Shown piece by piece: positions 19,855-55,141 of a DNA stretch of 55,331 nt. Position 1 is the first letter of the stretch. Every line of letters starts with the position of its first letter. The notes below the pieces were generated by a model. The model was not told the DNA's origin, did not search any database, and saw nothing but the letters and a program-made list of their open reading frames with translations. A program made the translations under genes and the position numbers. Source of the DNA: a virus (taxonomy: Duplodnaviria > Caudoviricetes); the IMG/VR virus record IMGVR_UViG_3300016469_000360, positions 1 to 55,331 of that record. The stretch is one strand, 5' to 3'.

Positions 19855-20073
19855 ATGAAGAAGATGACGTTGCAGCAGTACTTCGTGGGTGAGCCCCATG
19901 GAGCGAAGAAGGAGATGGCCCTGTACCTGGGGATCAGTCCGACTTGGCTCTCTCTGCTCATCAACGGGAGTCGCAAGCCCAGCGCGACCTTGGCGCGGAA
20001 GATCGAAGATGCCACCCAGGGACTTGTGCCGGCCAGTGTGTTGAGACCAGACCTCTTTCAGGAGAAGCGATGA
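19855..20073 (+). CDS. Cro/YdaS-like HTH transcriptional regulator
   Basis: KKEMALYLGISPTWLSLLING HTH, IEDATQG.V....LRPDLF; RBS AAGGAG. Confidence 0.85.
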   Translation: MKKMTLQQYFVGEPHGAKKEMALYLGISPTWLSLLINGSRKPSATLARKIEDATQGLVPASVLRPDLFQEKR

Positions 20074-20858
20074 GGCAAGTAAAGATCGACGAGATCAGGA
20101 TCGACGGGGGCACGCAGTGCCGGGTGGTGTTGAGCCAGCCCAAGATCTACGAGTACCGAGAGCGGATGGAGGACGGAGACGAGTTTCCTCCGATTGAGGC
20201 AACCTTCGATGGCGCAACCTACTGGCTGACAGACGGGTTCCACCGCTGGCATGCTATGAAGCTCATGGGGCTGAAGGAGGTGACCGTCAAGTGGAAACCC
20301 GGCACCTTGGAAGATGCCATCATCGCGGCCCTGAAGGCCAACAGCAAACACGGCATTCCTCTGACCAACGAGGACAAGCGCAAGAAGGTTCTGGTGGCCT
20401 TGGAGTTGCCGGGATGGCACCAGAAGTCGAACTACGAGATCGCCAAGGCCTGTGATGTGTCTCAGCCCTTTGTGGCCGCGGTGAGAGACCCAGAGGCCAA
20501 GAAGAGGCAGGAGGAAGCCCGGCAGCGCTCGGCAACCAAGAAGGCCGAGAAGGCCGATACTAATCAGATTAGTAGTCCCAAGGCGGACGCTGAGCCTGAC
20601 CCCCACGCTGGAGAGGCGCCCGACGAGGCGGAGCTGCGAGCGACGGAGCTCGCCCACGAGGCCGATGTGGAGGCCATGCACAAGCTCCTGGAGGCGGATG
20701 AGCCCCTTAAGGTGGCCCACGAGGAGATCAAGAGGCTGAACCACCTAAACGCCCAGTTGGAGCTCAGGATCAACGGGTTGATGGCCGAGAAGAACGAGGC
20801 CGTGAAGATGGTCAAAAGCCTGCAGAAGCAGTTGGACAAGCTCAAGAAGGAGAAGTGA
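20070..20858 (+). CDS. ParB-family protein (ParB N-terminal domain + HTH + C-terminal coiled coil)
   Basis: GTQCR, FPPI, LTDGFHRWHA Arg-patch, N.KHG..LT, SNYEIAKACDVSQPFVAAVR HTH. Confidence 0.8.
   Translation: MRQVKIDEIRIDGGTQCRVVLSQPKIYEYRERMEDGDEFPPIEATFDGATYWLTDGFHRWHAMKLMGLKEVTVKWKPGTLEDAIIAALKANSKHGIPLTNEDKRKKVLVALELPGWHQKSNYEIAKACDVSQPFVAAVRDPEAKKRQEEARQRSATKKAEKADTNQISSPKADAEPDPHAGEAPDEAELRATELAHEADVEAMHKLLEADEPLKVAHEEIKRLNHLNAQLELRINGLMAEKNEAVKMVKSLQKQLDKLKKEK
20558..20574. promoter_or_regulatory. 17-bp palindrome TACTAATCAGATTAGTA, copy inside ParB-like gene
   Basis: 8-bp arms around one central base; same arms at 28406, 35818, 53563. Confidence 0.8.
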
Positions 20859-22379
20859 TGAACGCAGTCCTAGCGCCGCGTGAGCGTGATGATGGATTCC
20901 CTCCCCCCCCGCGACTTCCAGATCACGGCCCACGAGGCCCTCAGGAAGGGCTTCAGGGAGGGTCACAAGAATCAGTTGATCATGGCCCCCACCGGGGCTG
21001 GGAAGACCTACCTGGGGCTTCGGATCTGCTATGAGGCTATGCAGAGGGGCAAGAGAGCGGTGTTCCTCTGCGACCGCACAACCCTGATCAACCAGACTTC
21101 GTCGGTGGCGGACAGGTACGGTCTCGTGGACCACGGGATCATCCAGGCCGATCACTGGAGGCGGCGGCCGGATAAGCTGCTGCAGATCGCTTCGGTGCAG
21201 ACCATCGCCAAGCGGGCGTATTGGCCCCAGGTGGACGTTCTGGTGGTTGATGAGGCCCACACCACCTTCAAGGCCTGGACGGAGTTCTCCAAGGCCACAG
21301 AGGCCGCTGTGATCGGCCTGTCGGCCACGCCCTTTACGCCCGGCCTGGGAAAGCTCTTCACGAATCTCATCAACGCCACGACCATGTGGGACCTGACCCA
21401 GAACGGGGTGTTGGTTCCGATGCGGATCTTCTCCTGCCACAAGCCGGACATGACCGGGGCGGAGATGAAGGGCGGCGAGTGGACCGACAAGGCCGCGGAG
21501 GAGCGGGGCATGGAGATCATCGGGGACGTGGTCTCCGATTGGCACCGCTATGGGGAGAACCGCAAGACGATCGTCTTCGGGGCGACGATCAAGCACTGCG
21601 AGGAACTCTGCCGGCAGTTTGTCTCCTCCGGCGTGATGGCCGCGGTCTTCACTTCCGAGACCACTGCGAAAGAGCGCGAGATGCTCCTGCAGGAGTACAG
21701 GAAGCCCACCAGCCACCTGAGGGTCCTGATCTCGGTGGAGGCTTTGGCCAAGGGCTTCGATGTTCCTGATGTGGGGTGTGTCTGTGACGCCCGGCCTCTC
21801 CGGAAGAGCCTGAGCACGGCGATCCAGATGTGGGGCCGCGGGCTGCGTGCGTCGCTCGAGACCGGGAAGAAGGACTGCCACCTCCTGGACTTCTCGGGGA
21901 ACATCGTGCGGTTCTTCGAGGACTTCAACGACATCTACTTCAACGGCCTGGACAAGCTCGACGACGGGGAGAAACTCGACAAGACTGCCCGGACGAAGGA
22001 GGAGTTCGAGGCGAAGGGTTGCCCGCGGTGCGGCTACACCCCCTTCCACAAGCGTTGCATGGCCTGTGGCTACGAGAGGGTCTCGCGGGAGATGACCGAG
22101 GCCCTGCCGGGCCAGATGAGAGAGATCTACATCGGGGAGGGTAAGAACAAGAAGAAGCTCGCCGACAACGCTGAGGACCTCTGGAATCAGGTGTGCACCT
22201 ATGCAAGGATCTACTCACAACCAACGAAGCAGTCTGGCCGGGCGTGGCACCTGTTCAAGAAGATCACGGGCCAGGACAGTCGGTGGTCGTTCTACTCAGC
22301 ACCTGATGTGCAGATCAACCGCAACGTCATGAACAAGATCCGGCAACTCAACATCGCCTACAAGAAAGGCCTGGGATGA
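20858..22379 (+). CDS. Superfamily II DExD/H helicase with C-terminal Zn ribbon; probable true start 20858 needs a +1 shift at the C8 tract (track start 20880)
   Basis: APTGAGKT, VVDEAH, GLSATP, GFDVP, QMWGRGLR motifs; CPRC...CMAC. Confidence 0.9.
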
Positions 22380-23224
22380 ACGACCCCTTCAAGATCGACA
22401 GTCCGACCTGCATCAGCTTCAGCGGCGGGCGCACCTCGGCCTACATGCTGTGGCGGGTGCTGCAGAGCAACGGCGGGTTGCCGAGCGATGCAGTGGTGTG
22501 CTTTGCCAACACCGGCAAGGAAGACGAGGCCACGCTCCGGTTCGTGCGGGACTGTGGCGAGCGGTGGGGCGTCAAGATTCACTGGCTTGAGTACCAGCCT
22601 GGGGGCTTTGATGTGAGCTCCTTCGAGAGTGCGAGCCGGGATGGTGAACCCTTCTTCCGGCTCATCCAGAAAGAACAGTTTTTGCCGTCCCCCGTTCAGC
22701 GCATCTGCACTTCGCGTCTCAAGATTCGAGTGATGCACAAGTTCCTCAAATCCATTGGCTGGGATGAGTGGGATCAGATGGTTGGCATCCGGGCCGACGA
22801 GCCGAGCCGAGTTGCGAAGATTCGGGCTCGCCCAACGCCAGAAGGCAAGCACGAAACGATGCTGATCCCTTTGTCGGACGCCGGGTTAGGCGTGCAGGAC
22901 GTCAATAAGTTTTGGAATAACCAGCCATTCAACCTGGAGCTATCGACCTTCAACGGTCGGACGCTCGCTGGGAACTGCGATCTATGCTTCTTAAAGCCTG
23001 CGGCGCAGATTCAAAGCCTCATCGCTGAGAAGCCGGAGCGGGCGATCTGGTGGGCGCGGATGGAGGACTACGCGAGGGAGAACTTCGCGGACAAGCGCTC
23101 TGCTTATGCTTACAACTTCCGCAAGGACAGAGCGAGTTATTCCGAGATGCTCCGCTTCTCGCAGCAGCAGCGCGACATGTTCGACCCCAACGAGGAAGCC
23201 ATCGCGTGCTTCTGCGGGGATTGA
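22376..23224 (+). CDS. PAPS-reductase-family (PP-loop) protein
   Basis: SFSGGRTS, FANTGKE, RICTSRLK, GIRADE, GNCDLCFLK, C-terminal CFCGD. Confidence 0.85.
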   Translation: MNDPFKIDSPTCISFSGGRTSAYMLWRVLQSNGGLPSDAVVCFANTGKEDEATLRFVRDCGERWGVKIHWLEYQPGGFDVSSFESASRDGEPFFRLIQKEQFLPSPVQRICTSRLKIRVMHKFLKSIGWDEWDQMVGIRADEPSRVAKIRARPTPEGKHETMLIPLSDAGLGVQDVNKFWNNQPFNLELSTFNGRTLAGNCDLCFLKPAAQIQSLIAEKPERAIWWARMEDYARENFADKRSAYAYNFRKDRASYSEMLRFSQQQRDMFDPNEEAIACFCGD

Positions 23225-23225
23225 C

Positions 23226-24080
23226 ATGGACTTCCTCGATTTCGCGCGATCGCACGGGATTCTGATCGACCCGTCGAAGTTCTTCGCCTCCGACCGGATC
23301 CGCAGGTGCGGGACGGCGGACAAGCCGCGCTCCGACAACGGGGCCTACTTCTGGGACGGGGAGCGGGGCTGGGTCATGGACTGGGCAGGAGAGGCTAGGC
23401 CGGTCTGGTTCGCCTCGGGTAAGGGGAAGGCCTGGACAGAGGAGGACAAGCGCTCCTGGGCCCATCGGAGGGCCCTGGCGGCCAAGGCGCAGGAGGAGAG
23501 GCACGAGACAGCTGCCAAGACCGCGGTGAACGTCCTGAAGCACGCCGAGATGAAGAACCACCCCTACCTGGAGCTCAAGGGCTTCCCGGAAGAGAAGGGG
23601 CTCGTGATCGAGGACGCTCTGTTGGTCCCGATGAGAAACGTCCAGACGAACCTGATCCAGGGCTACCAGTCGATCCGGTGGGACACCGAGACCCGGAAGT
23701 ACGAGAAGAAGATGCTGGCTGGGATGCGGGCCCGAGGGGCGGTGTTCCCGCTGGGCAACCACCCGGATGTGTGGCTGGTGGAGGGGTATGCCACGGGGTT
23801 GAGCGTTCGGGCCGCCCTGAGGGCATCTGGTCTGACGCCGCGGGTGGTGGTGTGCTTCTCGGCGAGCAACCTCGTGGAGGTGTCCAGCAAGATCGGCGGC
23901 CGGCGGTGGGTGTTTGCGGACAACGACGAAAGCCGCACGGGCGAAGAGGCTGCGCGCGAGACGGGACTCCCCTATACGATGGCGGACACGGTGGGATGGG
24001 ATGCGAACGACCTCCACCTCAGGGAAGGACTGTTCGCAGTGACCAAGAAGATCATGGAGTGCATGTGGGCAAGGAACTGA
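23226..24080 (+). CDS. TOPRIM-domain DNA primase
   Basis: HPYLELKG, LLVPM, VEGYATGLS, FADND, DAND motifs. Confidence 0.88.
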   Translation: MDFLDFARSHGILIDPSKFFASDRIRRCGTADKPRSDNGAYFWDGERGWVMDWAGEARPVWFASGKGKAWTEEDKRSWAHRRALAAKAQEERHETAAKTAVNVLKHAEMKNHPYLELKGFPEEKGLVIEDALLVPMRNVQTNLIQGYQSIRWDTETRKYEKKMLAGMRARGAVFPLGNHPDVWLVEGYATGLSVRAALRASGLTPRVVVCFSASNLVEVSSKIGGRRWVFADNDESRTGEEAARETGLPYTMADTVGWDANDLHLREGLFAVTKKIMECMWARN

Positions 24081-24256
24081 TCGACTACGCCCTGCCCCTC
24101 CTGCAAACGGAGGTGGCAGTCAAGAGGGTCTACGACAAGATGCTGGAGGGCAAGCCTGAGGCGGCCATGGAGTACGCCTACGAGGCCCAGAAAGGCCTTC
24201 TGGATGCCATGATCATGATCCGGGTAGAGATTGTGAAGGGGCTTGACAAGTCCTGA
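24065..24256 (+). CDS. Hypothetical protein (LIDYA motif)
   Basis: GTG 24065 with GGAG RBS. Confidence 0.65.
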   Translation: MGKELIDYALPLLQTEVAVKRVYDKMLEGKPEAAMEYAYEAQKGLLDAMIMIRVEIVKGLDKS

Positions 24257-24279
24257 CACCCTGTGACACAGTCTGCACC

Positions 24280-24716: not shown

Positions 24717-24720
24717 AGGC

Positions 24721-27826: not shown

Positions 27827-28154
27827 CATCAACGCTGCGGTGGACTACATCTATCACCAAGGAGCTCGATACGCTGAGGCCAAGGCCCACCGCACGTACT
27901 TGGAGGAGTACCGCAAGTCCCAGAAGGCCATGCTGATGAAGTCTGCCCTGGCGGATGGCCGCGCGAAGACAGCCGCAGCCGCGGAGATGGAGGCCTACGC
28001 AGATCCAGCTTACGTAGAGGCCTTGAAGGGCCTACAAGCCGCTGTAGAGGCCGAGGAGACCCTCCGGTGGGGGCTGGTGGCTGCGCAGGCCAGGATCGAG
28101 GTTTGGAGGAGCCAGGAGGCCTCCAACAGGCTCATGGACAAGTCCGCAGCATGA
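27819..28154 (+). CDS. Hypothetical coiled-coil protein (AYADPAY...IEVWRS)
   Basis: GGAGG RBS; overlapping stop/start. Confidence 0.75.
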   Translation: MSDINAAVDYIYHQGARYAEAKAHRTYLEEYRKSQKAMLMKSALADGRAKTAAAAEMEAYADPAYVEALKGLQAAVEAEETLRWGLVAAQARIEVWRSQEASNRLMDKSAA

Positions 28155-28411
28155 ACGGCAAGTTGAACGTCGCGGAAAGGGCTTGGGTGGCCCGGGTGAA
28201 GGAGCTTTCGTGCTCCGTGTGCGATGCCCCCGGCCCGAGCGATGCCCATCACATCAAGCAGGGGAGCCACTACACCGTGGTGGCCCTGTGCAAGTCCTGC
28301 CACCAGGGCTCCAAGATGGGCTGGCACGGGGAGAAGAGAGCCTGGGCCATCGCAAAGATGGACGAACTCGACGCCCTGAACGTCACTCTGCGCAGGCTGC
28401 AACAGTACTAA
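28151..28411 (+). CDS. Ref-like / DUF968-like HNH nuclease
   Basis: CSVC...AHHI...VALCKSCHQG...GWH Zn-HNH pattern. Confidence 0.75.
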   Translation: MNGKLNVAERAWVARVKELSCSVCDAPGPSDAHHIKQGSHYTVVALCKSCHQGSKMGWHGEKRAWAIAKMDELDALNVTLRRLQQY

Positions 28412-28422
28412 TCTGATTAGTA
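28406..28422. promoter_or_regulatory. 17-bp palindrome TACTAATCTGATTAGTA
   Basis: Overlaps stop of HNH gene; ~40 bp upstream of the promoter at 28459. Confidence 0.8.
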
Positions 28423-28458
28423 ACCCTGCAGCATGGTCAGGATTGTTTGCTGCCTTCC

Positions 28459-28477
28459 TTTAACTTCATGTTAGAGT
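28459..28477 (+). promoter_or_regulatory. TTTAAC-N5-GTTAGA palindrome with extended -10 (TGtTAGAGT)
   Basis: TTTAACTTCATGTTAGAGT upstream of strong RBS TAGGAG. Confidence 0.65.
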
Positions 28478-28514
28478 TCGCACCACTGCAACGACGCAGG
28501 TTTAGGAGATCGAG

Positions 28515-28832
28515 ATGACTGAAGTTCAAGCCGCCATCCAAGCCCTCGCGACTGTCGAGTCCCTGACCAACAAGATCGACCGTTTCGCCGTGATCGACCG
28601 CCAGATCAAGACCCTCACCGCTGAGGCCAAGACCCTGAAGGATGACCTCGCCAACACCTACGGTGAGGGCAAGTACCGCGGCGAGAAGTACGGCCTGCGC
28701 GTGACGATCGAGAACCGCAAGGGCTCGGTGGACATGGAGGCCCTGTGCAAGGCCTTCGGCATCACCGAGGCCGATCTCGACAAGTTCCGCGGCGAGTCCA
28801 GCGCCATCATCAAGGTCGCCGCCACTGCCTGA
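28515..28832 (+). CDS. Hypothetical early protein
   Basis: RBS AGGAG; strongly biased codons. Confidence 0.8.
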   Translation: MTEVQAAIQALATVESLTNKIDRFAVIDRQIKTLTAEAKTLKDDLANTYGEGKYRGEKYGLRVTIENRKGSVDMEALCKAFGITEADLDKFRGESSAIIKVAATA

Positions 28833-31845: not shown

Positions 31846-32523
31846 GTGATTCACTATCACGGGACGCCGATTAGCCCAAACTGATACATTGAGACGATGT
31901 CCGGTCGGCACTTTTGCGTGAGCTACGCAGCGCCAGCGCAACTGCACATCTGCCTGCGCATAGGTGCCAGCGTGATGTTGGACAACGGGGCCTTTTCCGC
32001 CTACACCCGCGGCCTGCAACTTGACGTGCCGGGGTTCTACCGCTGGATCGAGCCTCACCTAGCCCATCCCCACTGGGCTGTCGTGCCTGATGTCATCGGT
32101 GGCACTGTGGAGGAGCAACGAGCCATGCTGAAGACATGGCCGTTCAGCAGGATGCTGGGGTTGCCGGTGTGGCACCTAGGGATGCCGCATGACTACCTGC
32201 TGGAGCTTGTGGACAACTGGCCGCGCATCTGCCTAGGCAGTTCCGGTGAGTACTGGCAGGTAGGAGGAGAAAAGTGGTCTCGTCGAATGGATGAGACCTA
32301 CAACCTCTTGGCCCGGCGTGGACCCTTGCCGTGGCTGCACGGTTTGAGAATGCTCGGACAGGCGGCTGGCCCATGGCCGCTTGCTTCCGCTGACTCAACG
32401 AACATCGGACGCAACTTTAAAGACCACCCCGCAACATGCCCGGAGTGCATGGCACTCAGGCTAGAGAAAACCAACCCGCCGACTCTATGGAAAGAGCGGC
32501 CAACCCAGGAGCAGCTATGCTGA
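31846..32523 (+). CDS. TGT/DpdA-like transglycosylase-fold protein; N-terminus interrupted by in-frame TGA at 31882 (track ORF starts 31897)
   Basis: MIHYHGTP, MLDNGAFS, PDVIGG, PVWH, LHGL, SADST motifs resemble the TGT/DpdA barrel; adjacent to VUT-like transporter. Confidence 0.65.
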
Positions 32524-32996
32524 CCATCGCAATCGCCGCCTATGCCGCGGCCATGATCCTTGCCAACCTAACCGTGGCCGCCTTCGGGCCTTGGGTCTCG
32601 CCCATCAACGCTTTCCTGCTGATCGGATTGGACCTTGCCCTGCGGGACTGGTTGCACGTGCGGCTCAAGGTCTGGCAGATGGGAACGCTCATCGCGTTCA
32701 CGGGGGGTCTGACGTTCATCCTGAACCCGGCTGCCGGGCAGATTGCGGTGGCCTCAGCGGCGGCCTTCACCGCAGCCGCCCTGGTGGACTGGGGGACGTT
32801 CGCCCGACTCCGGGGGTCATGGATGTTCCGCGCCAACGGATCCAACGTGGCTGGGGCTGCCGTGGACTCACTCTTGTTCCCGACCCTTGCGTTCGGGGTT
32901 CTCATGCCGCACATCGTCGCCCTGCAGTTCTTGGCCAAGGTGACTGGTGGTGCGGTGTGGTCTTGGATTCTCAATCGCCGCCTGGAGGCCGCATGA
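32517..32996 (+). CDS. VUT / queuosine-precursor transporter (YhhQ-like)
   Basis: ANL, LRDWLH, IAVASAAAF...VDW, SNV.GAAVDSLLF..LAFG motifs; multi-TM. Confidence 0.8.
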   Translation: MLTIAIAAYAAAMILANLTVAAFGPWVSPINAFLLIGLDLALRDWLHVRLKVWQMGTLIAFTGGLTFILNPAAGQIAVASAAAFTAAALVDWGTFARLRGSWMFRANGSNVAGAAVDSLLFPTLAFGVLMPHIVALQFLAKVTGGAVWSWILNRRLEAA

Positions 32997-34033: not shown

Positions 34034-34387
34034 ATGGGGCGTAGGGCGGGTATCCCGAACAAGGCCACAGCGGATGCAAGGCGGGCGATCGCGGCGTTCG
34101 TGGATGGGAATGCTCACCGCCTGACGGAGTGGCTCGACAGCGTGGCTGAGGGAGTCAAGACGCAGGAGCAGGACCCCAAGACGGGCGAGGTGGTGGAGAA
34201 GTGGATCGTCCCGCCTAACCCGGCGAAGGCGTTCGACATGTTCCAGTCGGTGGTGGAGTACCACGTGCCCAAGCTGGCCCGCATGGAGCACGTAGGTGAC
34301 CCGGAGAACCCGATGCAGGTGGAGCACTACCACGACGTATTCGGGGAGCTCCTGAAGAACCTGAAGATGCAGCGTCAGAGTGAGTGA
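34034..34387 (+). CDS. terS: Terminase small subunit (putative)
   Basis: GR..G.PNKAT N-terminus, EYHVPKLAR.E; directly upstream of terL. Confidence 0.7.
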   Translation: MGRRAGIPNKATADARRAIAAFVDGNAHRLTEWLDSVAEGVKTQEQDPKTGEVVEKWIVPPNPAKAFDMFQSVVEYHVPKLARMEHVGDPENPMQVEHYHDVFGELLKNLKMQRQSE

Positions 34388-35817
34388 TGGGGGCGGTTGA
34401 CCTCATCCTCCTGGACGACTCCCTGCTGGAGGAGTTCAAAAAGCTGCCCGTGAGGCAGAAGGCTGCCCTGGCGTGGCAGATGGAGTGGCTGCAGAAGGCC
34501 CATAAGCACCAGATCGAGCCGCCGGGGGACTGGTGGACCATCTGGCTCCTGATGGCCGGCCGCGGCGCCGGGAAGACCCGGGCAGCTGCTGAGACCCTGG
34601 CCTCATGGGCCTGGGAGGAGCCGAACACCCGCTGGCTGATCTCTGCTCCCACCTCGGGAGACGTGAGGGGCACGTGCTTCGAGGGCGACTCGGGGCTGCT
34701 GAACGTGATCCCGGCCACCCTGATCGCGGACTACAACAAGAGCCTGCACGAGCTCACCCTGGTGAACGGGAGCTTCCTCAAGGGCATCCCGGCCAGCGAG
34801 CCTGAGCGCTTCCGCGGCGGCCAGTGGCACGGGGCATGGCTGGACGAGCTCGCGGCCTGGGAGTACCTGCAGGACTCCTGGGACATGATCATGTTCGCCG
34901 TTCGCCTGGGCAAGCGGACCCGGATCGTCGCTTCGACCACGCCAAAGCCTAAGCCTCTGGTGATCGAGCTCCTGGGGCGGGAGGGGGACGACGTGGTGGT
35001 CACGCGGGCATCGACCTACGTGAACGTGGCCAACCTCGCCCCGAGCTTCCAGAAGCAGATCTTGCAGTACGAGGGTACCAACCTCGGCCGCCAGGAGATC
35101 CACGCCGAGATCATCGACCCGGAGGAGGCCGGCATCGTCAAGCGCCAGTGGTTCCGCCTCTGGCCAGCCTCCAGGCCCTTCCCGCGGCTGGAGTTCATCC
35201 TGCAGTCCTACGACTGCGCCACCTCGGAGAAGACCCACAACGACCCGACGGGCTGCATCACCTTCGGGGTGTTCAAGCCCGAGGACGGCGGCATGAGCGT
35301 CATGGTCATGGACTGCTGGGCAGAGCACCTGCAGTACCCGGACCTTAGACCGAAGGTCATCGGGGAGTTCGAGACGGTCTACGGGGAGGGCAAGGCCAGG
35401 AAGCTGGTGGACCTGATCCTGGTGGAGGACAAGTCGGCAGGCATCTCCCTGATCCAGGACCTGCAGCGGGCCCACCTGCCGGTCCACGCCTACAACCCGG
35501 GTCGGGCGGACAAGATCCAGCGGCTGTCGATTGTGGCCAACATCATCAAGGCCGGCAGGGTCTGGGTGCCTGAGTCCAGCCAGAGGAAGGGCTTCGTCCG
35601 AGACTGGGCTGAAGGAATGGTGAGCCAGATCTGCTCGTTCCCCGACGGGACGGTGCACGATGAGTACGTGGACTGCATCAGCCAAGGGCTGCGGTACCTG
35701 CGGGACGCCGGGTGGATCAGCATCGACGGACCTCCGCGGGAGGAGATCGAGCAGGATGACATCCTGGACGCTGAGATCTTCAATGCCCGCGGCCGCGAGA
35801 ACCCGTATGCGGCCTGA
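34384..35817 (+). CDS. terL: Terminase large subunit
   Basis: AGRGAGKT Walker A, WLDE Walker B, QSYDCA, EDKSAG, HDEYVD nuclease motifs. Confidence 0.95.
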   Translation: MMGAVDLILLDDSLLEEFKKLPVRQKAALAWQMEWLQKAHKHQIEPPGDWWTIWLLMAGRGAGKTRAAAETLASWAWEEPNTRWLISAPTSGDVRGTCFEGDSGLLNVIPATLIADYNKSLHELTLVNGSFLKGIPASEPERFRGGQWHGAWLDELAAWEYLQDSWDMIMFAVRLGKRTRIVASTTPKPKPLVIELLGREGDDVVVTRASTYVNVANLAPSFQKQILQYEGTNLGRQEIHAEIIDPEEAGIVKRQWFRLWPASRPFPRLEFILQSYDCATSEKTHNDPTGCITFGVFKPEDGGMSVMVMDCWAEHLQYPDLRPKVIGEFETVYGEGKARKLVDLILVEDKSAGISLIQDLQRAHLPVHAYNPGRADKIQRLSIVANIIKAGRVWVPESSQRKGFVRDWAEGMVSQICSFPDGTVHDEYVDCISQGLRYLRDAGWISIDGPPREEIEQDDILDAEIFNARGRENPYAA

Positions 35818-35834
35818 TACTAATCAGATTAGTA
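35818..35834. promoter_or_regulatory. 17-bp palindrome TACTAATCAGATTAGTA immediately after terL stop
   Basis: 21-mer GATACTAATCAGATTAGTAGT identical to 20556-20576. Confidence 0.8.
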
Positions 35835-35846: not shown

Positions 35847-36053
35847 ATGAAGGTAGAAGGTGAGCCCGAGAAGTACATGGTCCTCCAGCACGTTGGAGGG
35901 GTGCAGGTCACGGTGTGCGAGAACCGATTCGAGGTGCTCATCGAGCCCGGGATGGACGCGAAGGAGCAACACCTCATGGGGATGGTCCGAGACTGGGTCC
36001 GGGAGCGCCGACAGAAGGCGCAGTTGCGAAAGCCTGGGGATATGCCAGACTGA
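35847..36053 (+). CDS. Hypothetical protein
   Basis: GGAG RBS, ATG 35847. Confidence 0.65.
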   Translation: MKVEGEPEKYMVLQHVGGVQVTVCENRFEVLIEPGMDAKEQHLMGMVRDWVRERRQKAQLRKPGDMPD

Positions 36054-36100
36054 CCGGTGCGACCCATGCCCGCTAGACCCACGCAGTGGGGAGAAGGATA

Positions 36101-38728
36101 ATGCCCACCATGAAGACGACCCAGCAGATGCGGGATGAGCTGCTGCTACGCGGGCGCAAAGAGGTCCTTCCCTTTGAGAAGGACTCGACCACGATGCCGA
36201 TCCCGAGCACCTTCGGCGGCCTGAAGACGACTGGCCGGCTCTTCCATGGTGGTACGTGGGAAGGCCTGATCGCGGACAAACAGGGCGCCATCGTGGGTGG
36301 GCGGCCGGCGACATCGTTTACGAGGAACCCCTACGAGGCTCTGGAGTACGCCAGCCAGCCTGGGGGCAAGGTAGTGTCGGTCTCTCAAAGGGGCCTGAAG
36401 ATCTACCGCGGCGGCAACCCGGACTTGGACAGGGCCTACATGAGTCAGGGTGCCCAAGCGGTGGCCCGAGCCGGCTATGACGGGGTTGATGTCCGAGCCC
36501 TGACGGGTGGCGGCTACAACGAGGTGGTGGTGTGGAACCATGAGAAGGTGAAGGATGTCCACACTGCCCCTGTCGAGACCAGGATGGAGGGTATGGCGCT
36601 GGCTCAGCCCTTCCAGAACCAGTTTAAGCAATGGTTCGGCAACAGTGTAGTGGCGGACAAAAGGGGCCGGCCGAAGCCGGTCTACCACTCGACGGACCAG
36701 CAGTTCAGCGTCTTTAAGACGGACGGACTGGGCTTCCACGTGGGAACCAAGGGGCAGGCACGGGACATCGGCGGGTCCAGGATGATCAAGGCCTATGTTT
36801 CATTGCAGAACCCTTTGCGAATGCCTGACATGGGTGAGCGGTGGGACTCCGCGCCTCGGATGACGGATGCCCTGTTGGATCAGGGCACGCTGACGGACGA
36901 AGAGGGCGCCGCCATCACGGGCCAACCGCGGGAGAGGCAACTCCAGGCCTTGAAGGACCTCTTAATCTCCAAAGGGCACGACGGCATCGTCTACGAGAAC
37001 GAACACGAAGGACGTGGTGGAGATTCCTACCTTCTGTTCCATCCTCACCAAATCAAGGCAACGACCAACAAGGCCCCGACGATGTCGCCGGACATCCACA
37101 TGGCGGCCGGCGGGTCGGTACAACGGATGCGGGACGAGCTCCTTCTGAAGGGCATGGCCGGCGGAGGAGCCGTCAAAGCGCCCGTGACCCGCACCGGGTT
37201 CTACTCCCCCCTCGAGGAGGCCGCCCTCAACATCCAGCGAAAGTCCGGCAACGCCCAGGCGTTCATGAACGACCTGAGGTCTGTTCCGAAGGAGCACCTG
37301 CAGCACGCAGATGTGGATAAGTTGTTGACAAGCAGGCCGACGATTACTCGGGAAGAACTTCAAAAGCACGTAGCCCGAACCGCGCCGAAGGTTGAGGTGA
37401 AGGTGCTGGGGGAAGATGATTCGGATGAAGACAGTCAGACTAAATACAGCGAGTATCAACTCCCAGGCGGCCAAAACTACCGCGAAGTGCTGCTGACATT
37501 GCCGAAAGAAAAGCCGCAGGCATATTTAATGAGTGTGCCTGGGCCTGGATGGACGACCACCAATAAACATGTTGTGTCATACCGCGGCAAGGTTCACGAA
37601 TTCAATACTGCCGAGCAGGCCAGGGAGTTTCAGAAAAGCATAGATCCTGGTCCGGATTTCAAATCCAATCACTGGGATGATCCTAACGTCCTGGCCCACT
37701 TTCGGATCAACGACCGCACGGACAAGGATGGGAAGAAGGTCCTGTTCGTGGAGGAGATCCAGAGCGACTGGGGGCAGGAGGGGAAGAAGAAGGGGTTTGC
37801 CTCTGGTTATCAGGTTTACCTGAAACACGGATACACACCCGTTGCGAATGCCCTGTTTGATAAAAAATCAGATGCAGAAGAGTTTGCCAAAAACATTGCA
37901 AACAACCCGCCATTTGTTGCGGCATTTGTCGATAAGCCACGTGACGGTGTACCCGCCGCCCCCTTCGTCACGAAGACGAACGACTGGGTGAACCTCGCTC
38001 TCAAGCACATCATGAAGATGGCGGCCGAGGAAGGCCATGACCGGGTGGCGTTCGTGAAGGGAGAGCAGGCCGCGGATCGGTTTAGTTTGGACAAACACTT
38101 CTCTCAAATCCAGGCGCGGCCAGTAGTGGGGGGCGGATTCGAGATCCACACCACGGCTCGGGACGGCAGTCGAGAGAGCAGCGTCAACGTCCCGCCCAAC
38201 AAGCTGCACGAGTACGTGGGCGAGGATCTAGCCAAGAAGATCCAGCAACAAGGCGGTGGGACGTTCGATGGGGATGATCTGATCGTTCCCAACACGGGCA
38301 TGCGGAAGTTCTACGACGAGCTCGTGCCGGCGCAGGCCCATGCCTTGGTGAAGAGATTCGGCGGGCAGGGGATCAAGCCCATCCCGTTGCCTACGCCTCC
38401 AAAGGTAGATCCGTACAAAGGTCTATCGATTGAGCCGGATGATGGCAAGTTTGCCGTGACGCTTGATGGGCACGTTATCGAGCAGCATCCATCGGAGGAC
38501 GAGGCCAGAGAAGCGATGCAGTACATCGATCCCGGGTTCTGGCGCGGAGAGATTGAGGCTGGAGGCTTCCGCAGGATCAACCGTCCGCCTGAGACATACC
38601 AAGGCTTCGACATCACGCCTGAGATGCGGCAGGCCATTCTGAAGCCCATGGCCTATGCGAAGGGTGGAGCGGTCCCGACGATGGATGAGATGCGCCTGCA
38701 GGTTTGGGACAAACGAAGGGGAAGATGA
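36101..38728 (+). CDS. Polyvalent protein: two ADP-ribosyltransferase-like domains plus a large polyvalent-associated domain
   Basis: LFHGG...SFT....A..YA...GYDGV...EVVV; FKQWFG.S.V.D..G.P..VYH.T...NPL...GHDGI...QIK; PGG.NYRE.LL...H....N.LAH.R...LFVEEIQSDW. Confidence 0.7.
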   Translation: MPTMKTTQQMRDELLLRGRKEVLPFEKDSTTMPIPSTFGGLKTTGRLFHGGTWEGLIADKQGAIVGGRPATSFTRNPYEALEYASQPGGKVVSVSQRGLKIYRGGNPDLDRAYMSQGAQAVARAGYDGVDVRALTGGGYNEVVVWNHEKVKDVHTAPVETRMEGMALAQPFQNQFKQWFGNSVVADKRGRPKPVYHSTDQQFSVFKTDGLGFHVGTKGQARDIGGSRMIKAYVSLQNPLRMPDMGERWDSAPRMTDALLDQGTLTDEEGAAITGQPRERQLQALKDLLISKGHDGIVYENEHEGRGGDSYLLFHPHQIKATTNKAPTMSPDIHMAAGGSVQRMRDELLLKGMAGGGAVKAPVTRTGFYSPLEEAALNIQRKSGNAQAFMNDLRSVPKEHLQHADVDKLLTSRPTITREELQKHVARTAPKVEVKVLGEDDSDEDSQTKYSEYQLPGGQNYREVLLTLPKEKPQAYLMSVPGPGWTTTNKHVVSYRGKVHEFNTAEQAREFQKSIDPGPDFKSNHWDDPNVLAHFRINDRTDKDGKKVLFVEEIQSDWGQEGKKKGFASGYQVYLKHGYTPVANALFDKKSDAEEFAKNIANNPPFVAAFVDKPRDGVPAAPFVTKTNDWVNLALKHIMKMAAEEGHDRVAFVKGEQAADRFSLDKHFSQIQARPVVGGGFEIHTTARDGSRESSVNVPPNKLHEYVGEDLAKKIQQQGGGTFDGDDLIVPNTGMRKFYDELVPAQAHALVKRFGGQGIKPIPLPTPPKVDPYKGLSIEPDDGKFAVTLDGHVIEQHPSEDEAREAMQYIDPGFWRGEIEAGGFRRINRPPETYQGFDITPEMRQAILKPMAYAKGGAVPTMDEMRLQVWDKRRGR

Positions 38729-43488: not shown

Positions 43489-43644
43489 ATGGCGACGAGT
43501 GATCAGGAGCAGCGCGGCATCAATGTGCCGATGCGCAAGCGCATTGCGATGGGCGAGAAACTGGACGGCACAAGCCTGCAGCCCAAGGGCGGCCAGCCGG
43601 CGCGCAAGCCCCAAGGCGGCCTCTCCCAGGCCAAGAAGAAGTGA
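43489..43644 (+). CDS. 51-aa basic protein (absent from track)
   Basis: AGGAG RBS; MATSDQEQRGINVPMRKRIAMG... Confidence 0.65.
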   Translation: MATSDQEQRGINVPMRKRIAMGEKLDGTSLQPKGGQPARKPQGGLSQAKKK

Positions 43645-50012: not shown

Positions 50013-50041
50013 AAGACGGGGGCTTCGGCCCCTGTCTTCTC
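50013..50041 (+). terminator. Stem-loop / probable terminator
   Basis: AAGACGGGGGC-TTCG-GCCCCTGTCTT. Confidence 0.6.
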
Positions 50042-50053
50042 TGAGGTGTTCTG

Positions 50054-50580: not shown

Positions 50581-51131
50581 TGGCTAACACCAAGATCAGT
50601 GCAATGCCGGCCGCGACCCTGCCATTGGCAGGTAGCGAGACCGTGCCCCTTGTGCAAGGCGGCAACAACGTCAAGGCTTCGGTCTTCAGTGTGACGGCGG
50701 CCACTTACGGCGAGATCTACGTCGCCGGAGGTGCGGTTCCGCAGACCTTGACGGTCGCAAACACCTTCTACAAGCTGAATACCTTCACGACGGACGGCCT
50801 GTCGAATGGTGTCACGCCTCAAGTGGCAAATGATCGAATTCAAATCGACACTGGTGGGGTGTACCTGATCCAGTTCTTCCTGACGTTTTCAGACTCCAAC
50901 AACCGCACGTTCTCGTTCCGTTGCTTCAACGAAACGACCGCCACTGCGTACCCAAACACTCTGGTCAAGTCTCACTCTCATTCTTCTGATCCGATGTTCG
51001 TGGCTGTGTCGGCGTTCGTGCAGGCTGCCGCGGGGAACACTCTGTGCGTGCAGGGGGCCTGCGACACTGGTCCCACTGACATCACGCTGAGTGACGGCAA
51101 CTTTGCTGTCCTTTTGCTGAAGGCGGCCTGA
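50580..51131 (+). CDS. Short fibre/spike protein with C1q/TNF-like C-terminal domain
   Basis: KISAMPAA..PLAG.E.VPLVQ N-terminus shared with 53069; GVYLIQF jelly-roll motif. Confidence 0.6.
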   Translation: MANTKISAMPAATLPLAGSETVPLVQGGNNVKASVFSVTAATYGEIYVAGGAVPQTLTVANTFYKLNTFTTDGLSNGVTPQVANDRIQIDTGGVYLIQFFLTFSDSNNRTFSFRCFNETTATAYPNTLVKSHSHSSDPMFVAVSAFVQAAAGNTLCVQGACDTGPTDITLSDGNFAVLLLKAA

Positions 51132-51133
51132 TC

Positions 51134-51655
51134 ATGCCTCTGGTCAAGTCCAAGTCGGCGAAAGCCTTCCAGGAGAACATCAAGCGCGAAATCGCCGCGG
51201 GCAAGCCTCAGAAGCAGGCCGTGGCTATCGCTTACGATGTTCAACGTCGGGCTCACAAGGCCGATGGGGGTGGCCTCTACGCCAACATCCACGCCAAGCG
51301 TCAACGTATCGCTGAAGGCTCGGGTGAGCGCATGCGCAAGCCTGGGGCGCCTGGGGCGCCGACCGCGGAGGCCTTCAGGGAGTCCGCCAAGACGGCCAAG
51401 GCCAAGGGCGGCGGGGTGAGCTTGAGTGTCGGCCGCGGCGAGAAGCTGCCGGTCAGCCAGGGTGCCGGCCTGACGGCCAAGGGCAGGGCCAAGTACAACC
51501 GGGAGACCGGCTCGGATCTGAAGGCACCTCAGCCCCAAGGGGGCGCCCGAAAGAAGTCCTTCTGCGCGAGAATGTCGGGCGTGGTGAGGCACTCCAAGGG
51601 TGACGCGGAGCGCGCCAAGGCTTCGCTGCGCAGGTGGAAGTGCTCGGGATGGTGA
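51134..51655 (+). CDS. Basic protein composed of fused micro-domains
   Basis: KPQKQAVAIAY; GLYANIHAKR; GAGLTAKGRAKYN...RKKSFCARM...SLRRWKC. Confidence 0.75.
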   Translation: MPLVKSKSAKAFQENIKREIAAGKPQKQAVAIAYDVQRRAHKADGGGLYANIHAKRQRIAEGSGERMRKPGAPGAPTAEAFRESAKTAKAKGGGVSLSVGRGEKLPVSQGAGLTAKGRAKYNRETGSDLKAPQPQGGARKKSFCARMSGVVRHSKGDAERAKASLRRWKCSGW

Positions 51656-51663
51656 GGTGACAC

Positions 51664-52722
51664 ATGGCCTACAGCGGGACCGTCGGGCAGACTGTCGTCT
51701 CGGTTCAGAAGTTCATCGACCAAGGGGCCCGGCTGTCCGGGAAGCTGGCCGAGGAACTGACGGTCGAGCAGGTGCAGGCATCCAAGCAGGCTCTGTTCTT
51801 CACTTTGAGCAACCTGATCAACCAGGGCATCAACTACTGGTGCATCTCCAAGAAGGTCTACGGCCTCAAGCCGGACCAGTATGAGTACCTGCTGCCTGTT
51901 GGTGGCAACGATGTCCTGAACGCCCTCTACAGAACGTTGCAGCGGCCTTCTGGGACCTATGCGGCTTCGTCTGGGACGGCGTACAACGCTTTCGATTCGG
52001 ATGTCGATACCGTCACGGTGCAGTCCGCACCGAACGGCAACATCTCGGTCAACTTCGGCACCGACAATCCCATCTATGCGGGCTCGATCGGCATCCTGCC
52101 TGGGGTGTCTGGCTCGTTTCACATCCTGCTGGAGACCTCGGATGACGGGGTGTCTTGGACCACGTTGCTGGACACAGGGGTGGAGACATGGGTCAACAAC
52201 GAATGGCTCTGGTACGACATCGACCCTGGCGCGAGCAAGCAGTGGTACCGGATGCGGGAGACGGGTGGGAACACCCTGCAGGTGCGGGAGTTTTACGTCG
52301 GCAACCTCTCAACCGAGGTGACGATGGCCCGGCTCAACCGGGACGACTACACCAACCTGCCGAACAAGAACTTCACGGCCAACCAGCCCTACCAGTACTG
52401 GCTGAACCGCACGATCCCCCAGGCCAAGATCACGCTGTGGCCCACGCCCTCGAATCCGTTCGTGCAGATGACGGTGTGGTACTCCCGCCAGATCATGGAC
52501 GTGGGGGACCTGTACGACGAGATCGAGGTGCCGCAGTACTTCTATCAGGCCATCCAGTTCATGCTCGCGCACCAGATGAGCATGATCCTCCCTGGCGTGG
52601 ATCTGGCGCGCATTCAGTACCTGGAGGGGCAGGCGGAGAAGTACTTCCAGCAGGCCGAGAACGAAAACCGCGACAGGTCGCCTATCTTCTACGCGCCGAA
52701 TCTGACGTGCTACACCCGGTGA
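51664..52722 (+). CDS. Head-tail connector / tail tubular protein with inserted beta domain
   Basis: NQGINYW, RDDY.NLPNK, LWPTP, E.E.RDR motifs. Confidence 0.7.
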   Translation: MAYSGTVGQTVVSVQKFIDQGARLSGKLAEELTVEQVQASKQALFFTLSNLINQGINYWCISKKVYGLKPDQYEYLLPVGGNDVLNALYRTLQRPSGTYAASSGTAYNAFDSDVDTVTVQSAPNGNISVNFGTDNPIYAGSIGILPGVSGSFHILLETSDDGVSWTTLLDTGVETWVNNEWLWYDIDPGASKQWYRMRETGGNTLQVREFYVGNLSTEVTMARLNRDDYTNLPNKNFTANQPYQYWLNRTIPQAKITLWPTPSNPFVQMTVWYSRQIMDVGDLYDEIEVPQYFYQAIQFMLAHQMSMILPGVDLARIQYLEGQAEKYFQQAENENRDRSPIFYAPNLTCYTR

Positions 52723-52725
52723 CCC

Positions 52726-53067
52726 ATGCCTCGCTTCTTGGACACTCGTGGCAATGCGATCATCGCGATCTTCATCTGCGACCGATGCAAGATGAAGCGC
52801 CCGATCGTGGAGGCGATGCCGGATCCGAACTTCCCTGGGCTGAAGGTCTGCGGCCAGGGCTGTGCGGATGAGAAGGACCCGTACCGGCTACCGGCGAGGA
52901 AGACTGAGCGCATCACCTTGCAATTTCCTCGTCCTGATGTCAGTGTCGCGGACACGAGCACGTCCCTCATCACGACTGGTAACGGGCAGTACAAGGTCAG
53001 CACAGAACAGAACACGCAGACCCCGGAGTCAAACGGCAACAACGACGTGATCTCACCGAGCTCCTGA
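52726..53067 (+). CDS. Small virion-associated protein (ICDRC...GLKVC...PRPD)
   Basis: Cys motif typical of this gene position in podophage-like genomes. Confidence 0.75.
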   Translation: MPRFLDTRGNAIIAIFICDRCKMKRPIVEAMPDPNFPGLKVCGQGCADEKDPYRLPARKTERITLQFPRPDVSVADTSTSLITTGNGQYKVSTEQNTQTPESNGNNDVISPSS

Positions 53068-53068
53068 C

Positions 53069-55141
53069 ATGTCAGCACAAGTTACTATCACCCAGCTACC
53101 GGCTGCAGGGGCCCTGACGGGGACGGAGTCGGTTCCGGTCGTCCAGAACGGTCAGACTGTTCAGACGACGACTGCGGCTATCGCGGGCGCCGGGGCATTG
53201 AATTACCCGTTCCTGACGGTCGGTTCGACCGCAGGGCTCATCCAGGCGCGGCAGATCTCAGCCAGTACTGGGCTGTCCCTGACGGACAACGGCGCCGGCT
53301 CGACGTTGCAGGTGAGTTTGACGGGGGCCGCGCAGTCTCTGAACTCCAGTCCTAGCGGCATCCAAGTCAAGACGGGACCGAGCACCCTCACGGCGCGGTC
53401 TATCGCGGTTGGAGGCGGCCTGCAGGTCACGGATGGGGATGGGGTAGCCGGTAACCCCACGGTGAGCTTGGGAGCGGTTCTGGCGAACTTTGCAGCCCTA
53501 ACCGGGACCGGAATGCTGGCCATGCAGTCTGGGGCGCCGGCCAAGGTCACCATCCAGGGCACTACTAATCAGATTAGTATCACCAACGGCAACGGAGCGG
53601 CTGATCCCACGGTTGGGTTGGCGAGCGACCCGGTGATTCCTGGCACTGGAGCAGTCAGAGTTCCTGTTGGAACGACTGCCGAGCGACTGAGTGTCAATGG
53701 CAACCTCCGCTACAACATCGACACCCAGAACTTTGAGGGTTACGCCAACGGGGTCTGGGGCTCAATCGCGGTGGGAACCGGTGTCACCTTCATCAATGTC
53801 ACGGGTGGCACTACCGGGTTGACCTTCTCGGGCGGGCCTGTCACAACGACTGGCACGTTCACGATGGCCGGCACGCTTGACACCGCGAGCGGTGGTACGG
53901 GCCTGACCTCTTGGACTCTTGGGGATGTCCCGTACTACTCAGCCGGCACGGTTCTGTCCAAGTTGGCGATCGGCACCAATGGGCAGTACCTGTCGAGCAA
54001 CGGGACTGCACCGCAGTGGTCGTCTCCTGGGGCTCTGACGAAGACGGATGACACCAATGTCACGCTGACCCTGTCTGGAAGTCCTTCTACGGCCCTTCTG
54101 AACGCCGCAGCGATCACGGTGGGATGGACGGGTCAACTCTCGACCACAAGAGGCGGAACGGGCCTTTCCTCCTACACGGCGGGGGATCTGCCCTACTACG
54201 CTACGGGGACGGCTCTAAGCAAGTTGGGGATCGGGGCTGCGAACACCGTACTGACTTCGACTGGAAGTGCCCCGCAATGGTCTTCGTCGCTGACTGGTCT
54301 GACTTCTGTCACCGTCACCCAGGATCCGACCCAGGATTTGCAACTGGCCACAAAACAGTATGTAGATGCAGTTGCCGAGGGATTGCACATCCATGCGGCT
54401 TGCGCGGCGGCAACGCCTGCAACCCTGGCATCAATCACCGGGGGAACGGTCACTTACAACAACGGCACGGCTGGTGTTGGGGCGACTCTGACGCTGTCGG
54501 TTGCCCTGACAACCCTGGACGGCTACCCGCTTCAGAACGGCAACCGGATTCTGGTCAAGAACGAAGCTACGCAGGCGAACAACGGCATCTACACCTGGGC
54601 TACGGGTGGAACCGTACTGACGCGGGCGACGGACTTCGATACGACCACGGAAGTGGCCAGCGGGGACTTTACCTTCGTCACCAATGGAACTTTGTACGCC
54701 AACACAGGTTGGGTGCAAACGAACAACACCACGTCGATTGGAACTAGTCCAATTGCGTTCGTGCAGTTCTCCGGGGCTGGAACGTACACGGCAGGCACTG
54801 GCCTGACGCTAACTGGCTCGCAATTCTCGATCACCAACACAGGTGTAAGCGCCGCAAGTTATGGGTCTGCTTCTCAGGTAGCGACGTTCGCGGTCAATGC
54901 TCAGGGTCAACTGACTGCGGCCTCGAACGCATCTATTGCGATTGCCGGAAGCCAGATCACATCCGGCACGGTTGCAGCTACGGTTGGAGGTACGGGGCAG
55001 TCCTCTTACACAACCGGCGACATCCTGTACGCTAACAGCAGCACAACTCTCACCAAACTGACTCTTGGCACTCAAGGCCAAGTCCTGAAGGCTGGCGCAT
55101 CGGCTCCTGAGTGGGGCGCTGTGGCTGGCGGAGCATTCTAA
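53069..55141 (+). CDS. Long tail fibre protein, ends in GGAF
   Basis: GGTG repeats, ATKQYVD, RILVKNE....NGIY, TRATDFD, FVQFSGAG motifs. Confidence 0.85.
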   Translation: MSAQVTITQLPAAGALTGTESVPVVQNGQTVQTTTAAIAGAGALNYPFLTVGSTAGLIQARQISASTGLSLTDNGAGSTLQVSLTGAAQSLNSSPSGIQVKTGPSTLTARSIAVGGGLQVTDGDGVAGNPTVSLGAVLANFAALTGTGMLAMQSGAPAKVTIQGTTNQISITNGNGAADPTVGLASDPVIPGTGAVRVPVGTTAERLSVNGNLRYNIDTQNFEGYANGVWGSIAVGTGVTFINVTGGTTGLTFSGGPVTTTGTFTMAGTLDTASGGTGLTSWTLGDVPYYSAGTVLSKLAIGTNGQYLSSNGTAPQWSSPGALTKTDDTNVTLTLSGSPSTALLNAAAITVGWTGQLSTTRGGTGLSSYTAGDLPYYATGTALSKLGIGAANTVLTSTGSAPQWSSSLTGLTSVTVTQDPTQDLQLATKQYVDAVAEGLHIHAACAAATPATLASITGGTVTYNNGTAGVGATLTLSVALTTLDGYPLQNGNRILVKNEATQANNGIYTWATGGTVLTRATDFDTTTEVASGDFTFVTNGTLYANTGWVQTNNTTSIGTSPIAFVQFSGAGTYTAGTGLTLTGSQFSITNTGVSAASYGSASQVATFAVNAQGQLTAASNASIAIAGSQITSGTVAATVGGTGQSSYTTGDILYANSSTTLTKLTLGTQGQVLKAGASAPEWGAVAGGAF
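53563..53579. promoter_or_regulatory. 17-bp palindrome TACTAATCAGATTAGTA inside tail fibre gene
   Basis: Reverse complement of 53561-53581 is GATACTAATCTGATTAGTAGT, matching the 21-mer apart from the central base. Confidence 0.78.

Follow-up and report, generated by a model that had tools for sequence, protein, structure and literature searches.

The window analysed here is the whole of IMG/VR virus record IMGVR_UViG_3300016469_000360, a complete 55,331-bp tailed-phage genome (Duplodnaviria; Caudoviricetes) with terminal repeats. It encodes an orphan ParB-like protein of 262 amino acids (20070..20858, + strand; true start ATG at 20070; phrog_1033, E 7e-18) and carries four dispersed copies of a 17-bp palindrome, TACTAATC-N-GATTAGTA, an odd dyad of 8-N-8 form. 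Across related phages, the sequence class of the palindrome covaries with the first two residues of the recognition helix in the helix-turn-helix (HTH) of this protein. The earlier note on this DNA had proposed that the protein binds the palindromes, and the co-occurrence of gene and site, the presence of one site class per genome and the covariation, all of them comparative sequence evidence, make this very probable. The explanation that we consider best overall, and likely, is that a ParB-class protein without ParA reads the dispersed palindromes as docking sites, possibly in the role of an organiser or regulator.

Palindromes in the window and in related phages

Exact TACTAATCNGATTAGTA occurs four times in the window, at 20558, 28406, 35818 and 53563, as had been reported, and has no match in 100 dinucleotide-preserving shuffles of the window. 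Tolerating up to three mismatches adds only the degenerate copy at 11357..11373 (TACTAATCCGATTACGG; expected number 0.02), which the earlier note had also listed; its left arm is intact, its right arm has three mismatches and its status is uncertain. It lies within a 1910-residue open reading frame (ORF; 7614-13346) that has no family match. No further copy was found elsewhere in the complete record. The palindrome is AT-rich in a GC-rich genome, as described before: 12 of its 16 specified bases are A or T (75% A+T), and the genome has a GC fraction of about 0.60.

Two of the unstranded full copies are located inside coding sequence, in agreement with the earlier description. Copy 1 (20558..20574) lies in the part of the ParB-like gene that encodes a linker, where it specifies T164-N-Q-I-S168, and copy 4 (53563..53579) lies within the gene for a tail-fibre-like protein of 690 residues (53069-55141), where it encodes TNQIS in the identical frame. 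Copy 3 (35818..35834) begins, as had been noted, at the first base after the stop codon of terL (34384-35817; PF03237, E 5.8e-23) and ends 13 nucleotides before the ATG at 35847. Copy 2 (28406..28422) overlaps the TAA stop of the ORF 28067-28411 and is upstream of a promoter-like site (28447..28477, + strand; TTGCTG ... TGTTAGAGT, with an extended -10 at 28469-28477) that is conserved in relatives. From the end of this copy it is about 24 nucleotides to the -35-like TTGCTG and 49 to the TAGAGT of the extended -10. The copy had been placed near an early promoter; it does precede a promoter-like site, and the label 'early' was not substantiated. An extension to GATACTAATC(A/T)GATTAGTAGT, claimed for three copies, is present in only two (20558 and 35818).

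The promoter itself is conserved in relatives as cTTGCa, about 19 nucleotides and a TG-extended TAGAAT (window 28447-28510). It is followed by a conserved hairpin-like element in the 5' untranslated region, CACTGCAA-N3-CGCAGGTTT, ahead of the homologues of 28515-28832, and its -10 word recurs at 19804 and 30893 of the window.

A scan of IMG/VR for the exact motif returned 87 stretches. Of these, 74 have tblastn matches to genes of the window and are relatives; 13, most of them AT-rich, seem to be there by chance. In the relatives, 100 sites recur at syntenic places, with an unconstrained central base (T in 30, C in 27, A in 23 and G in 20). Counted per locus and not per phage, with some loci overlapping on one contig, 22 of these sites are in the tail-fibre gene, 20 at the terL flank and five between the homologue of 34034-34387 and terL. 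Another 13 are in the ParB-like gene, five follow the homologue of 28067-28411, four are in the homologue of 3514-4149, four in that of 43489-43644, three follow the homologue of 1431-1604 and four are associated with other window-gene homologues, leaving 20 with no nearby homologue. The gene at 3514-4149 encodes an SU10-type adaptor (PF24175). Its homologue holds an exact class-A site (that is, one with TACTAATC) in four relatives and a site of their own class in MW202545 and G001; the window copy of this gene has no site.

Comparison of whole genomes gave a similar arrangement for palindromes of different sequence. The set comprised 14 genomes: the window, 12 IMG/VR records and GenBank MW202545.1, the one weak match in a near-identical DNA search of GenBank phages and a member of the family with eight sites of its own class. 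Taking half-site positions 3-8 as a 6-N-6 core, one core (or related core family) is repeated 3-10 times in 11 of the 14 genomes, and unrelated 6-N-6 palindromes occur in those genomes once, at most twice. With one mismatch allowed, G008 reaches 10 copies and G010 three. Only the genome's own palindrome class is repeated in 13 of the 14, the class-by-genome matrix is diagonal, and the copies occupy identical syntenic places despite their differing sequences. In the exact-core scan, 12 of the 14 genomes have a site in the ParB-like gene, and G009 has an imperfect one there. Twelve of the genomes include terL, and in 11 of these, G013 being the exception, a site lies no more than about 60 bp from it. 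A site follows the homologue of 28067-28411 in eight of the 14 and falls in the tail-fibre gene in at least six.

The search for homologues of the ParB-like protein used first the protein itself and then an alignment, and the best 80 of 183 viral stretches encoding relatives were kept. Among these, 45 unique homologues have an identity of 41% or more. Nucleotides 484-538 of the homologue's own gene contain a perfect 6-N-6 core in 40 of the 45, and two more have a 5/6 core. The co-occurrence of motif and gene, which the earlier note had proposed to test, extends to 42 of the 45. These in-gene sites fall in the disordered interdomain linker of the protein. Depending on the free central base, the linker peptide is TN(Q/P/R/L)IS, and the tail-fibre peptide follows the site class, being TNQIS with CTAATC, TSQTS with CTAGTC and SSQTT with GTAGTC. 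At the coding copies, the encoded peptides of ParB-like protein and tail fibre adapt symmetrically (N..I to S..T), preserving the dyad, and the DNA-binding sites override the protein-coding constraint. The in-gene site is doubled or tripled in MW202545, L118, L070, L230 and L234, and the number in relatives ranges from one to three.

Covariation of the palindrome with the recognition helix

The codons for S131 and the recognition helix Q132-R139 lie at 20460..20486 (+ strand; DSSP helix 132-139). When the two arms of each core are counted separately, Q132 is accompanied by C at half-site position 3 in 46 of 46 arms and E132 by C in 10 of 10, and G stands at this position with K132 (7 of 8 arms), R132 (10 of 10) and A132 (4 of 4). 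At position 6, P133 goes with A in 34 of 34 arms, and S or T at residue 133 goes with G in 50 of 50. The pairing of K or R with G and of E with C represents chemically sensible contacts. The two-residue code can thus be written as Q or E with C, K or R with G, P with AAT and S with AGT.

By helix residues 132-133, QP is associated with the cores CTAATC (12 unique proteins) and CTAATG (one), QS with CTAGTC (six) and CTAGTT (four), and ES with CTAGTT (two). KS is found with GTAGTC in two unique proteins, one of which has an imperfect arm, and RS with GTAGTC (four) and GTAGTT (one). The remaining combinations are KP with GTAATT (two), AP with GTAATC (two), ST with CTGGTT (one), DT with YCGGTT (two) and ET with CCAGTT (three). 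More distant homologues follow the same rule. A homologue 40% identical, from a Burkholderiales metagenome-assembled genome, has the helix residues SQPF and the site TACTAATC-C-GATTAGTA; one from a bacterial assembly has SQSF and CTAGTC; and a 36%-identical prophage homologue from Zeimonas has H-P and GGAATC, with P again paired with AAT.

We scanned all columns of five proteins (ParB-like, Cro-like, replication initiator, helicase and exonuclease) for mutual information with the site. Residues 164-168 of the ParB-like protein, which the site itself encodes, were among the highest-scoring columns. Leaving these aside, position 3 was predicted best by residue 132 (0.90) and position 6 perfectly by residue 133 (1.0). 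In the other four proteins nothing comparable with residues 132 and 133 emerged, and the initiator, helicase and exonuclease were accordingly rejected as covarying partners.

The covariation involves repeated switches. On a tree of the ParB-like protein, computed from an alignment stripped of its helix and linker columns, position 3 changes at least eight times and position 6 at least nine times. For position 3 there are five independent contrasting pairs on well-supported branches, 4.8 of 5 of which go in the predicted direction over random pairings; for position 6 there are three, all in the predicted direction. No pair goes in the opposite direction at either position, and in total at least eight phylogenetically independent switches share one direction. 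Examples are the sister pairs L111 (QS, CTAGTC) and L112 (KS, GTAGTC), and L153 (QS) and L154 (RS), as well as the pair formed by the window (QP, CTAATC) and L118 (QS, CTAGTC). The expectation that the palindrome class would covary with the recognition helix is therefore borne out.

A different reader of the palindromes (the Cro/YdaS-like HTH protein encoded next to the ParB-like gene, the terminase, a restriction-modification or homing enzyme or a host protein) would reduce the link with the ParB-like protein to mere linkage. Odd-centred dyads of 17 bp are typical of Cro/cI operators, and a site flanks terL in 11 of the 12 terL-containing genomes. Against this, the HTH region of the Cro-like protein (GITPTWLGLLI) hardly varies from one site class to another and none of its columns predicts the site, for which reasons we rejected it as the reader; moreover, no copy of the palindrome, even with three mismatches, is found in the divergent promoter region 19765-19855. 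The two residues that do covary stand at the very start of the recognition helix of the ParB-like protein itself. The class differs between close phages (L111/L112 and L153/L154), which a shared host factor would not explain, and the Zeimonas chromosome has no copies beyond the prophage gene. We regard another reader as very improbable.

The Cro-like protein may have a different connection with the system. Complex prediction of residues 1-162 of the ParB-like protein with the Cro-like protein gave a median interface score (ipSAE) of 0.35 (runs 0.01, 0.43 and 0.35), with 0.00 for the best control. At least 94% of contacts are shared between the runs, and the partner has a predicted local distance difference test (pLDDT) score of at least 84. 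Of 80 solved complexes, 58 reach the mark used for such predictions, as do two of 110 mismatched pairs; those that reach it with scores of up to 0.60 are seven of the 80 solved complexes and both of these mismatched pairs. The predicted complex thus gives weak support, a hint, for the Cro-like protein as a KorA-like partner of the ParB-like protein.

Fold, gene neighbourhood and proposed role

An AlphaFold2 model of the ParB-like protein (mean pLDDT 86, from a 62-sequence alignment) has a ParB/Srx domain at residues 1-90, HTH helices at 121-128 and 132-139, a disordered linker at 162-185 and a long C-terminal helical hairpin at 186-261. The chain starts at the ParB domain itself (strand 2-5), without an N-terminal extension. 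In Foldseek searches of the PDB, the best matches of the model were Noc, ParB of several species and KorB (E 2.8e-7 to 2e-5), with probability 1.0 over about 140 columns; the match to KorB (8qa9) has a template modelling (TM) score of 0.50 and a root-mean-square deviation of 3.5. On this model the protein belongs to the ParB/Noc/KorB structural class, defined by a ParB/Srx N-domain and an HTH. A profile search against PDB sequences retrieved Myxococcus xanthus ParB (E 3.6e-4), in an alignment that places Q16 and R18 on Box I and G56-F-H-R59 on the GERR of Box II. The predicted nucleotide pocket is conserved, residues T15, Q16, R18, D47, G56, H58, R59 and N91 being invariant in the 62 ParB-like sequences. 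In Box II, now GFHR, the G and last R are kept and the E and first R replaced, and of Box III (ENLQR) only N91 is kept, in A-N-S-K-H.

Family searches with the protein returned little else. No ParB family was matched in the NCBIfam scan, and the sole Pfam match, RMI1_N_C, was below threshold and taken as spurious. Outside phages, sequence relatives align over residues 1-140 only (N-domain and HTH; 41-46% identity). They are StrR-like or 'ParB N-terminal domain-containing' proteins of Streptomyces and cyanobacterial plasmids.

The + strand carries nearly all window genes. On the two sides of a divergent control region (19765-19855) lie a leftward and a rightward unit. The leftward one encodes a replication initiation protein of the NGO0469 family (19099..19764, - strand; NF046043, E 9.4e-61), divergent from the operon of the Cro-like and ParB-like genes, and a PD-(D/E)XK exonuclease (18329-19099; phrog_298). 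The rightward unit begins with the Cro/YdaS-like HTH gene (19855..20073, + strand; PF15943, E 2e-8), directly upstream of the ParB-like gene. It continues with the downstream neighbour of the ParB-like gene, a superfamily 2 (SF2) helicase gene (20880..22379, + strand; phrog_16, E 1.5e-80), then a PAPS-reductase/SspD-like gene (22376-23224), two genes downstream of the ParB-like gene, and a primase gene. Beyond this replication module are terL, portal, capsid and tail genes. An 880-residue polyvalent protein with an ART-PolyVal ADP-ribosyltransferase domain is encoded after terL (36086-38728).

In the mechanism that we propose, the early gene 20070-20858 encodes a presumably dimeric protein of the ParB/Noc/KorB class, in which a flexible linker joins the ParB/Srx nucleotide-pocket domain and the HTH to a helical hairpin for dimerisation. 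The HTH very probably reads TACTAATC-N-GATTAGTA, Q132 reading half-site position 3 and P133 position 6, and the four copies are then docking or loading sites like parS or the KorB operator OB. These sites occupy fixed places: the protein's own gene, a gene end ahead of a promoter, the position right after terL and the tail-fibre gene. By analogy with KorB and BisD, the protein may be a nucleoside triphosphate-gated clamp or nucleator: loaded at the dispersed sites, it would organise the unidirectionally transcribed phage chromosome, or regulate it, from a distance. This is the role that we prefer, though we hold it at somewhat less than even. Possible outputs are late-gene timing or the coordination of replication, transcription and packaging. 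Silencing, condensing or tethering of the genome, suggested in the earlier note, may also be its function. More speculative still, and to our mind rather doubtful, is the full scenario of a freshwater tailed-phage family, probably with Burkholderiales hosts, under plasmid-style control of the whole genome. There, a nucleoside triphosphate-gated orphan ParB clamp loaded at a few fixed sites (its own gene, the terL flank, the tail-fibre gene and operon ends) and a Cro-like, KorA-like lock would time the late genes or couple replication to packaging, and the two-residue code would have switched repeatedly, dragging every site of the genome along, those in coding genes included.

Several observations weigh against the docking-site explanation or parts of it. 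The evidence for binding is comparative throughout. The tree comes from a quick IQ-TREE search, and the independent-pair sign tests give p values of about 0.06 for position 3 and about 0.25 for position 6, individually non-significant because the pairs are few. The in-gene site is lacking in three of the 45 homologues (L123, L150 and L156) and also in L229. No repeated 6-N-6 palindrome was detected in the complete genome G013 (the record of L150; 55,756 bp, helix SSPF), which has either lost its sites or uses a different site geometry. The fragment G003 encodes a QS-type ParB-like protein and yet has one exact TACTAATC site. L112:10495-10525 (same record as L046) contains two overlapping dyads, with GTAGTC and CTAATC cores, in a gene with helix SKSF, possibly a change of specificity in progress. 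Between copy 2 and its promoter the distance varies from about 47 to 130 nucleotides among relatives, what is conserved being the position relative to the upstream gene end. A fixed-position operator role is unlikely because of this variation, a fixed-distance operator at the 28469 promoter was rejected on the same ground, and the spacing lends no positive support to regulation. In the protein, no match to Pfam ParBc (PF02195) was found even at E 0.1 and a Phe aligns with the catalytic Glu of M. xanthus ParB; together with the GFHR form of Box II, this makes CTP binding, hydrolysis and clamp behaviour putative. Finally, dispersed sites are not a feature of the Zeimonas homologue: no exact copies were found outside the prophage gene in the 3.8-Mb genome, the one host genome covered by the chromosomal check, which contains one match with a single mismatch on another contig.

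Some of the remaining points on that side are those that favour a role in replication, in which the ParB-like protein would bind the palindromes as an origin binder or replisome organiser, with the origin in its own gene, and recruit the adjacent helicase and the primase. Lambda O and SPP1 G38P are precedents. The gene lies between the Cro-like gene and the helicase-primase pair, opposite the initiator and exonuclease, and its adjacency to the helicase is retained in relatives down to 36% ParB identity. The near-universal site is the one in the linker of the protein's own gene, with two to three tandem copies in some relatives, and the Zeimonas prophage has only its three tandem in-gene copies. 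An initiator of the lambda-O type, however, has an array of binding sites in its own gene beside an AT-rich unwinding element; the in-gene site is a single isolated 17-bp site in most genomes, and no AT-rich unwinding stretch is visible beside that of the window. A dedicated initiator of the NGO0469 family is already present, the fold is that of the ParB/Noc/KorB clamps, and three to 10 further sites stand at conserved late-gene places (terL flank, tail fibre), unlike an origin. We consider a replication role unlikely, though the most probable of the alternatives weighed here.

The Zeimonas homologue also bears on partition. Its locus (L234:6266-10909 on a Zeimonas arvi contig) belongs to an integrated prophage, with the integrase beside host transporter genes, and within the ParB-like gene three tandem dyads, 24 bp apart, encode an 'ESDSTPSL' repeat. 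Plasmid partition is therefore not the job of the homologue there. In the window, a classical partition system would serve a low-copy plasmid prophage, as SopB does in N15, with a ParA from the host or one that escaped recognition. The ParB fold and palindromic sites would fit this, as would the circular or terminally redundant record and the lack of an integrase: no tyrosine integrase (PF00589) was found in six frames of the window. The same approach gave no match to a ParA-type ATPase (PF13614, PF01656) in six frames of the complete genome, and controls in these searches were positive in 14 of 14 genomes. The earlier note, which had recognised neither a ParA nor an integrase, was thus upheld, for the integrase as regards the tyrosine type. 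In a recent study, the ParA-contact peptide is given as an LG(R/K)GL-like motif near the ParB N-terminus (10.1101/2025.10.10.680097). The window protein starts at its ParB domain, and no such peptide was seen in its sequence when read by eye. Nor was a repressor identified, and none of the 55 matching plasmid records among 72,556 covers at least 80% of the protein. Classical ParA-driven partition is unlikely because there is no ParA, no ParA-contact peptide and no full-length plasmid homologue and because a homologue resides beside an integrase in an integrated prophage; in the N15-like form we would call it improbable.

Other genes of the window bring DNA modification into consideration. A homologue of DpdA-like tRNA-guanine transglycosylases (31897-32523; phrog_887) adjoins a homologue of Vut_1 transporters (32436-32996; PF02592), a family that includes the preQ0 transporter YhhQ. 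Together with the PAPS-reductase/SspD-like gene, these two suggest 7-deazaguanine or other DNA modification. The ParB-like protein could then target a modifying enzyme to the sites, like DpdB with DpdA or DndB in Dnd/Ssp systems. DpdB is described as ParB-like in one study (PMC10164549), and phage ParBs activate thymine dioxygenases according to another (PMC13229309). The dioxygenase-associated ParBs are reported to be without a DNA-binding domain (PMC13229309), unlike the window protein. The latter also matches no PADLOC defence-system model. The genes at 22376-23224 and 31897-32523 have no homologue in the relatives' loci examined and are window-specific inserts; family-wide targeting of DNA modification was rejected, as SspD-like and DpdA-like genes are absent from relatives that have the ParB-like gene and the sites. 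Such targeting is the least probable of the explanations considered.

Comparison with known systems

Orphan ParB-family proteins outside partition, such as KorB, BisD, VirB and Noc, are a current topic. The literature on phage ParBs with dispersed sites led to these four, ParT, surveys of the ParB fold and the dioxygenase-activating phage ParBs. In the literature covered, mainly outside subscription journals and without supplements, no ParB-like protein with mapped sites in a tailed phage lacking ParA was found. What stands out in the present family is the explicit two-residue recognition code together with the positional conservation of the sites. The family amounts to a natural experiment, with dozens of protein-site pairs of differing specificity in which the site is predicted by two residues. 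Specificity swaps are directly testable and would yield orthogonal ParB/parS pairs for DNA labelling.

The operon order in plasmid RK2 is korA-incC-korB, and the small HTH gene just upstream of the ParB-like gene recalls korA. The ParB-like protein resembles KorB of IncP-1 RK2 in combining a ParB-fold N-domain with an HTH (structure 8qa9), and its sites resemble OB in that one short palindrome recurs unchanged across a mobile genome, at times close to a promoter and at times far from one or within a gene. It differs in having no ParA/IncC partner, in a C-terminus formed by a helical hairpin, in a Box II that reads GFHR and not GERR and in its host, a tailed phage; the site sequence, an 8-N-8 odd dyad, also differs from OB. 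Both KorB (PMC11790492) and BisD (PMC12409273) are reported to be orphan ParB-family clamps that regulate at a distance.

BisD of ICEclc is likewise an orphan ParB-like protein of a mobile element. From a small number of parS-like loading sites, it is reported to exert its effect across tens of kilobases of an element transcribed in one direction (PMC12409273). It depends on the arginine of a GxxR motif, which the window protein has as R59. Unlike the window protein, BisD has an extra activator domain and a partner, BisC, and its bisS sites number only two.

Noc of Bacillus is also similar, being an orphan ParB paralogue that works on dispersed palindromic sites and not in DNA partition. It carries an N-terminal amphipathic membrane-targeting helix and acts on the host chromosome; the ParB-like protein has no N-terminal extension. 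Noc structures (7ng0, 7nfu and 7ol9) are the best structural matches of the model, at E 2.8e-7. The similarity to StrR-like and ParB N-domain proteins of plasmids is limited to the first half of the ParB-like protein.

Phage N15 has SopB, SopA, a plasmid prophage and palindromic sites dispersed over its genome, late regions included. The window differs from N15, with its SopA and plasmid prophage, in being without ParA, and it resembles the SopB system of that phage in combining a phage genome with scattered palindromic sites of the ParB type that extend into the late regions.

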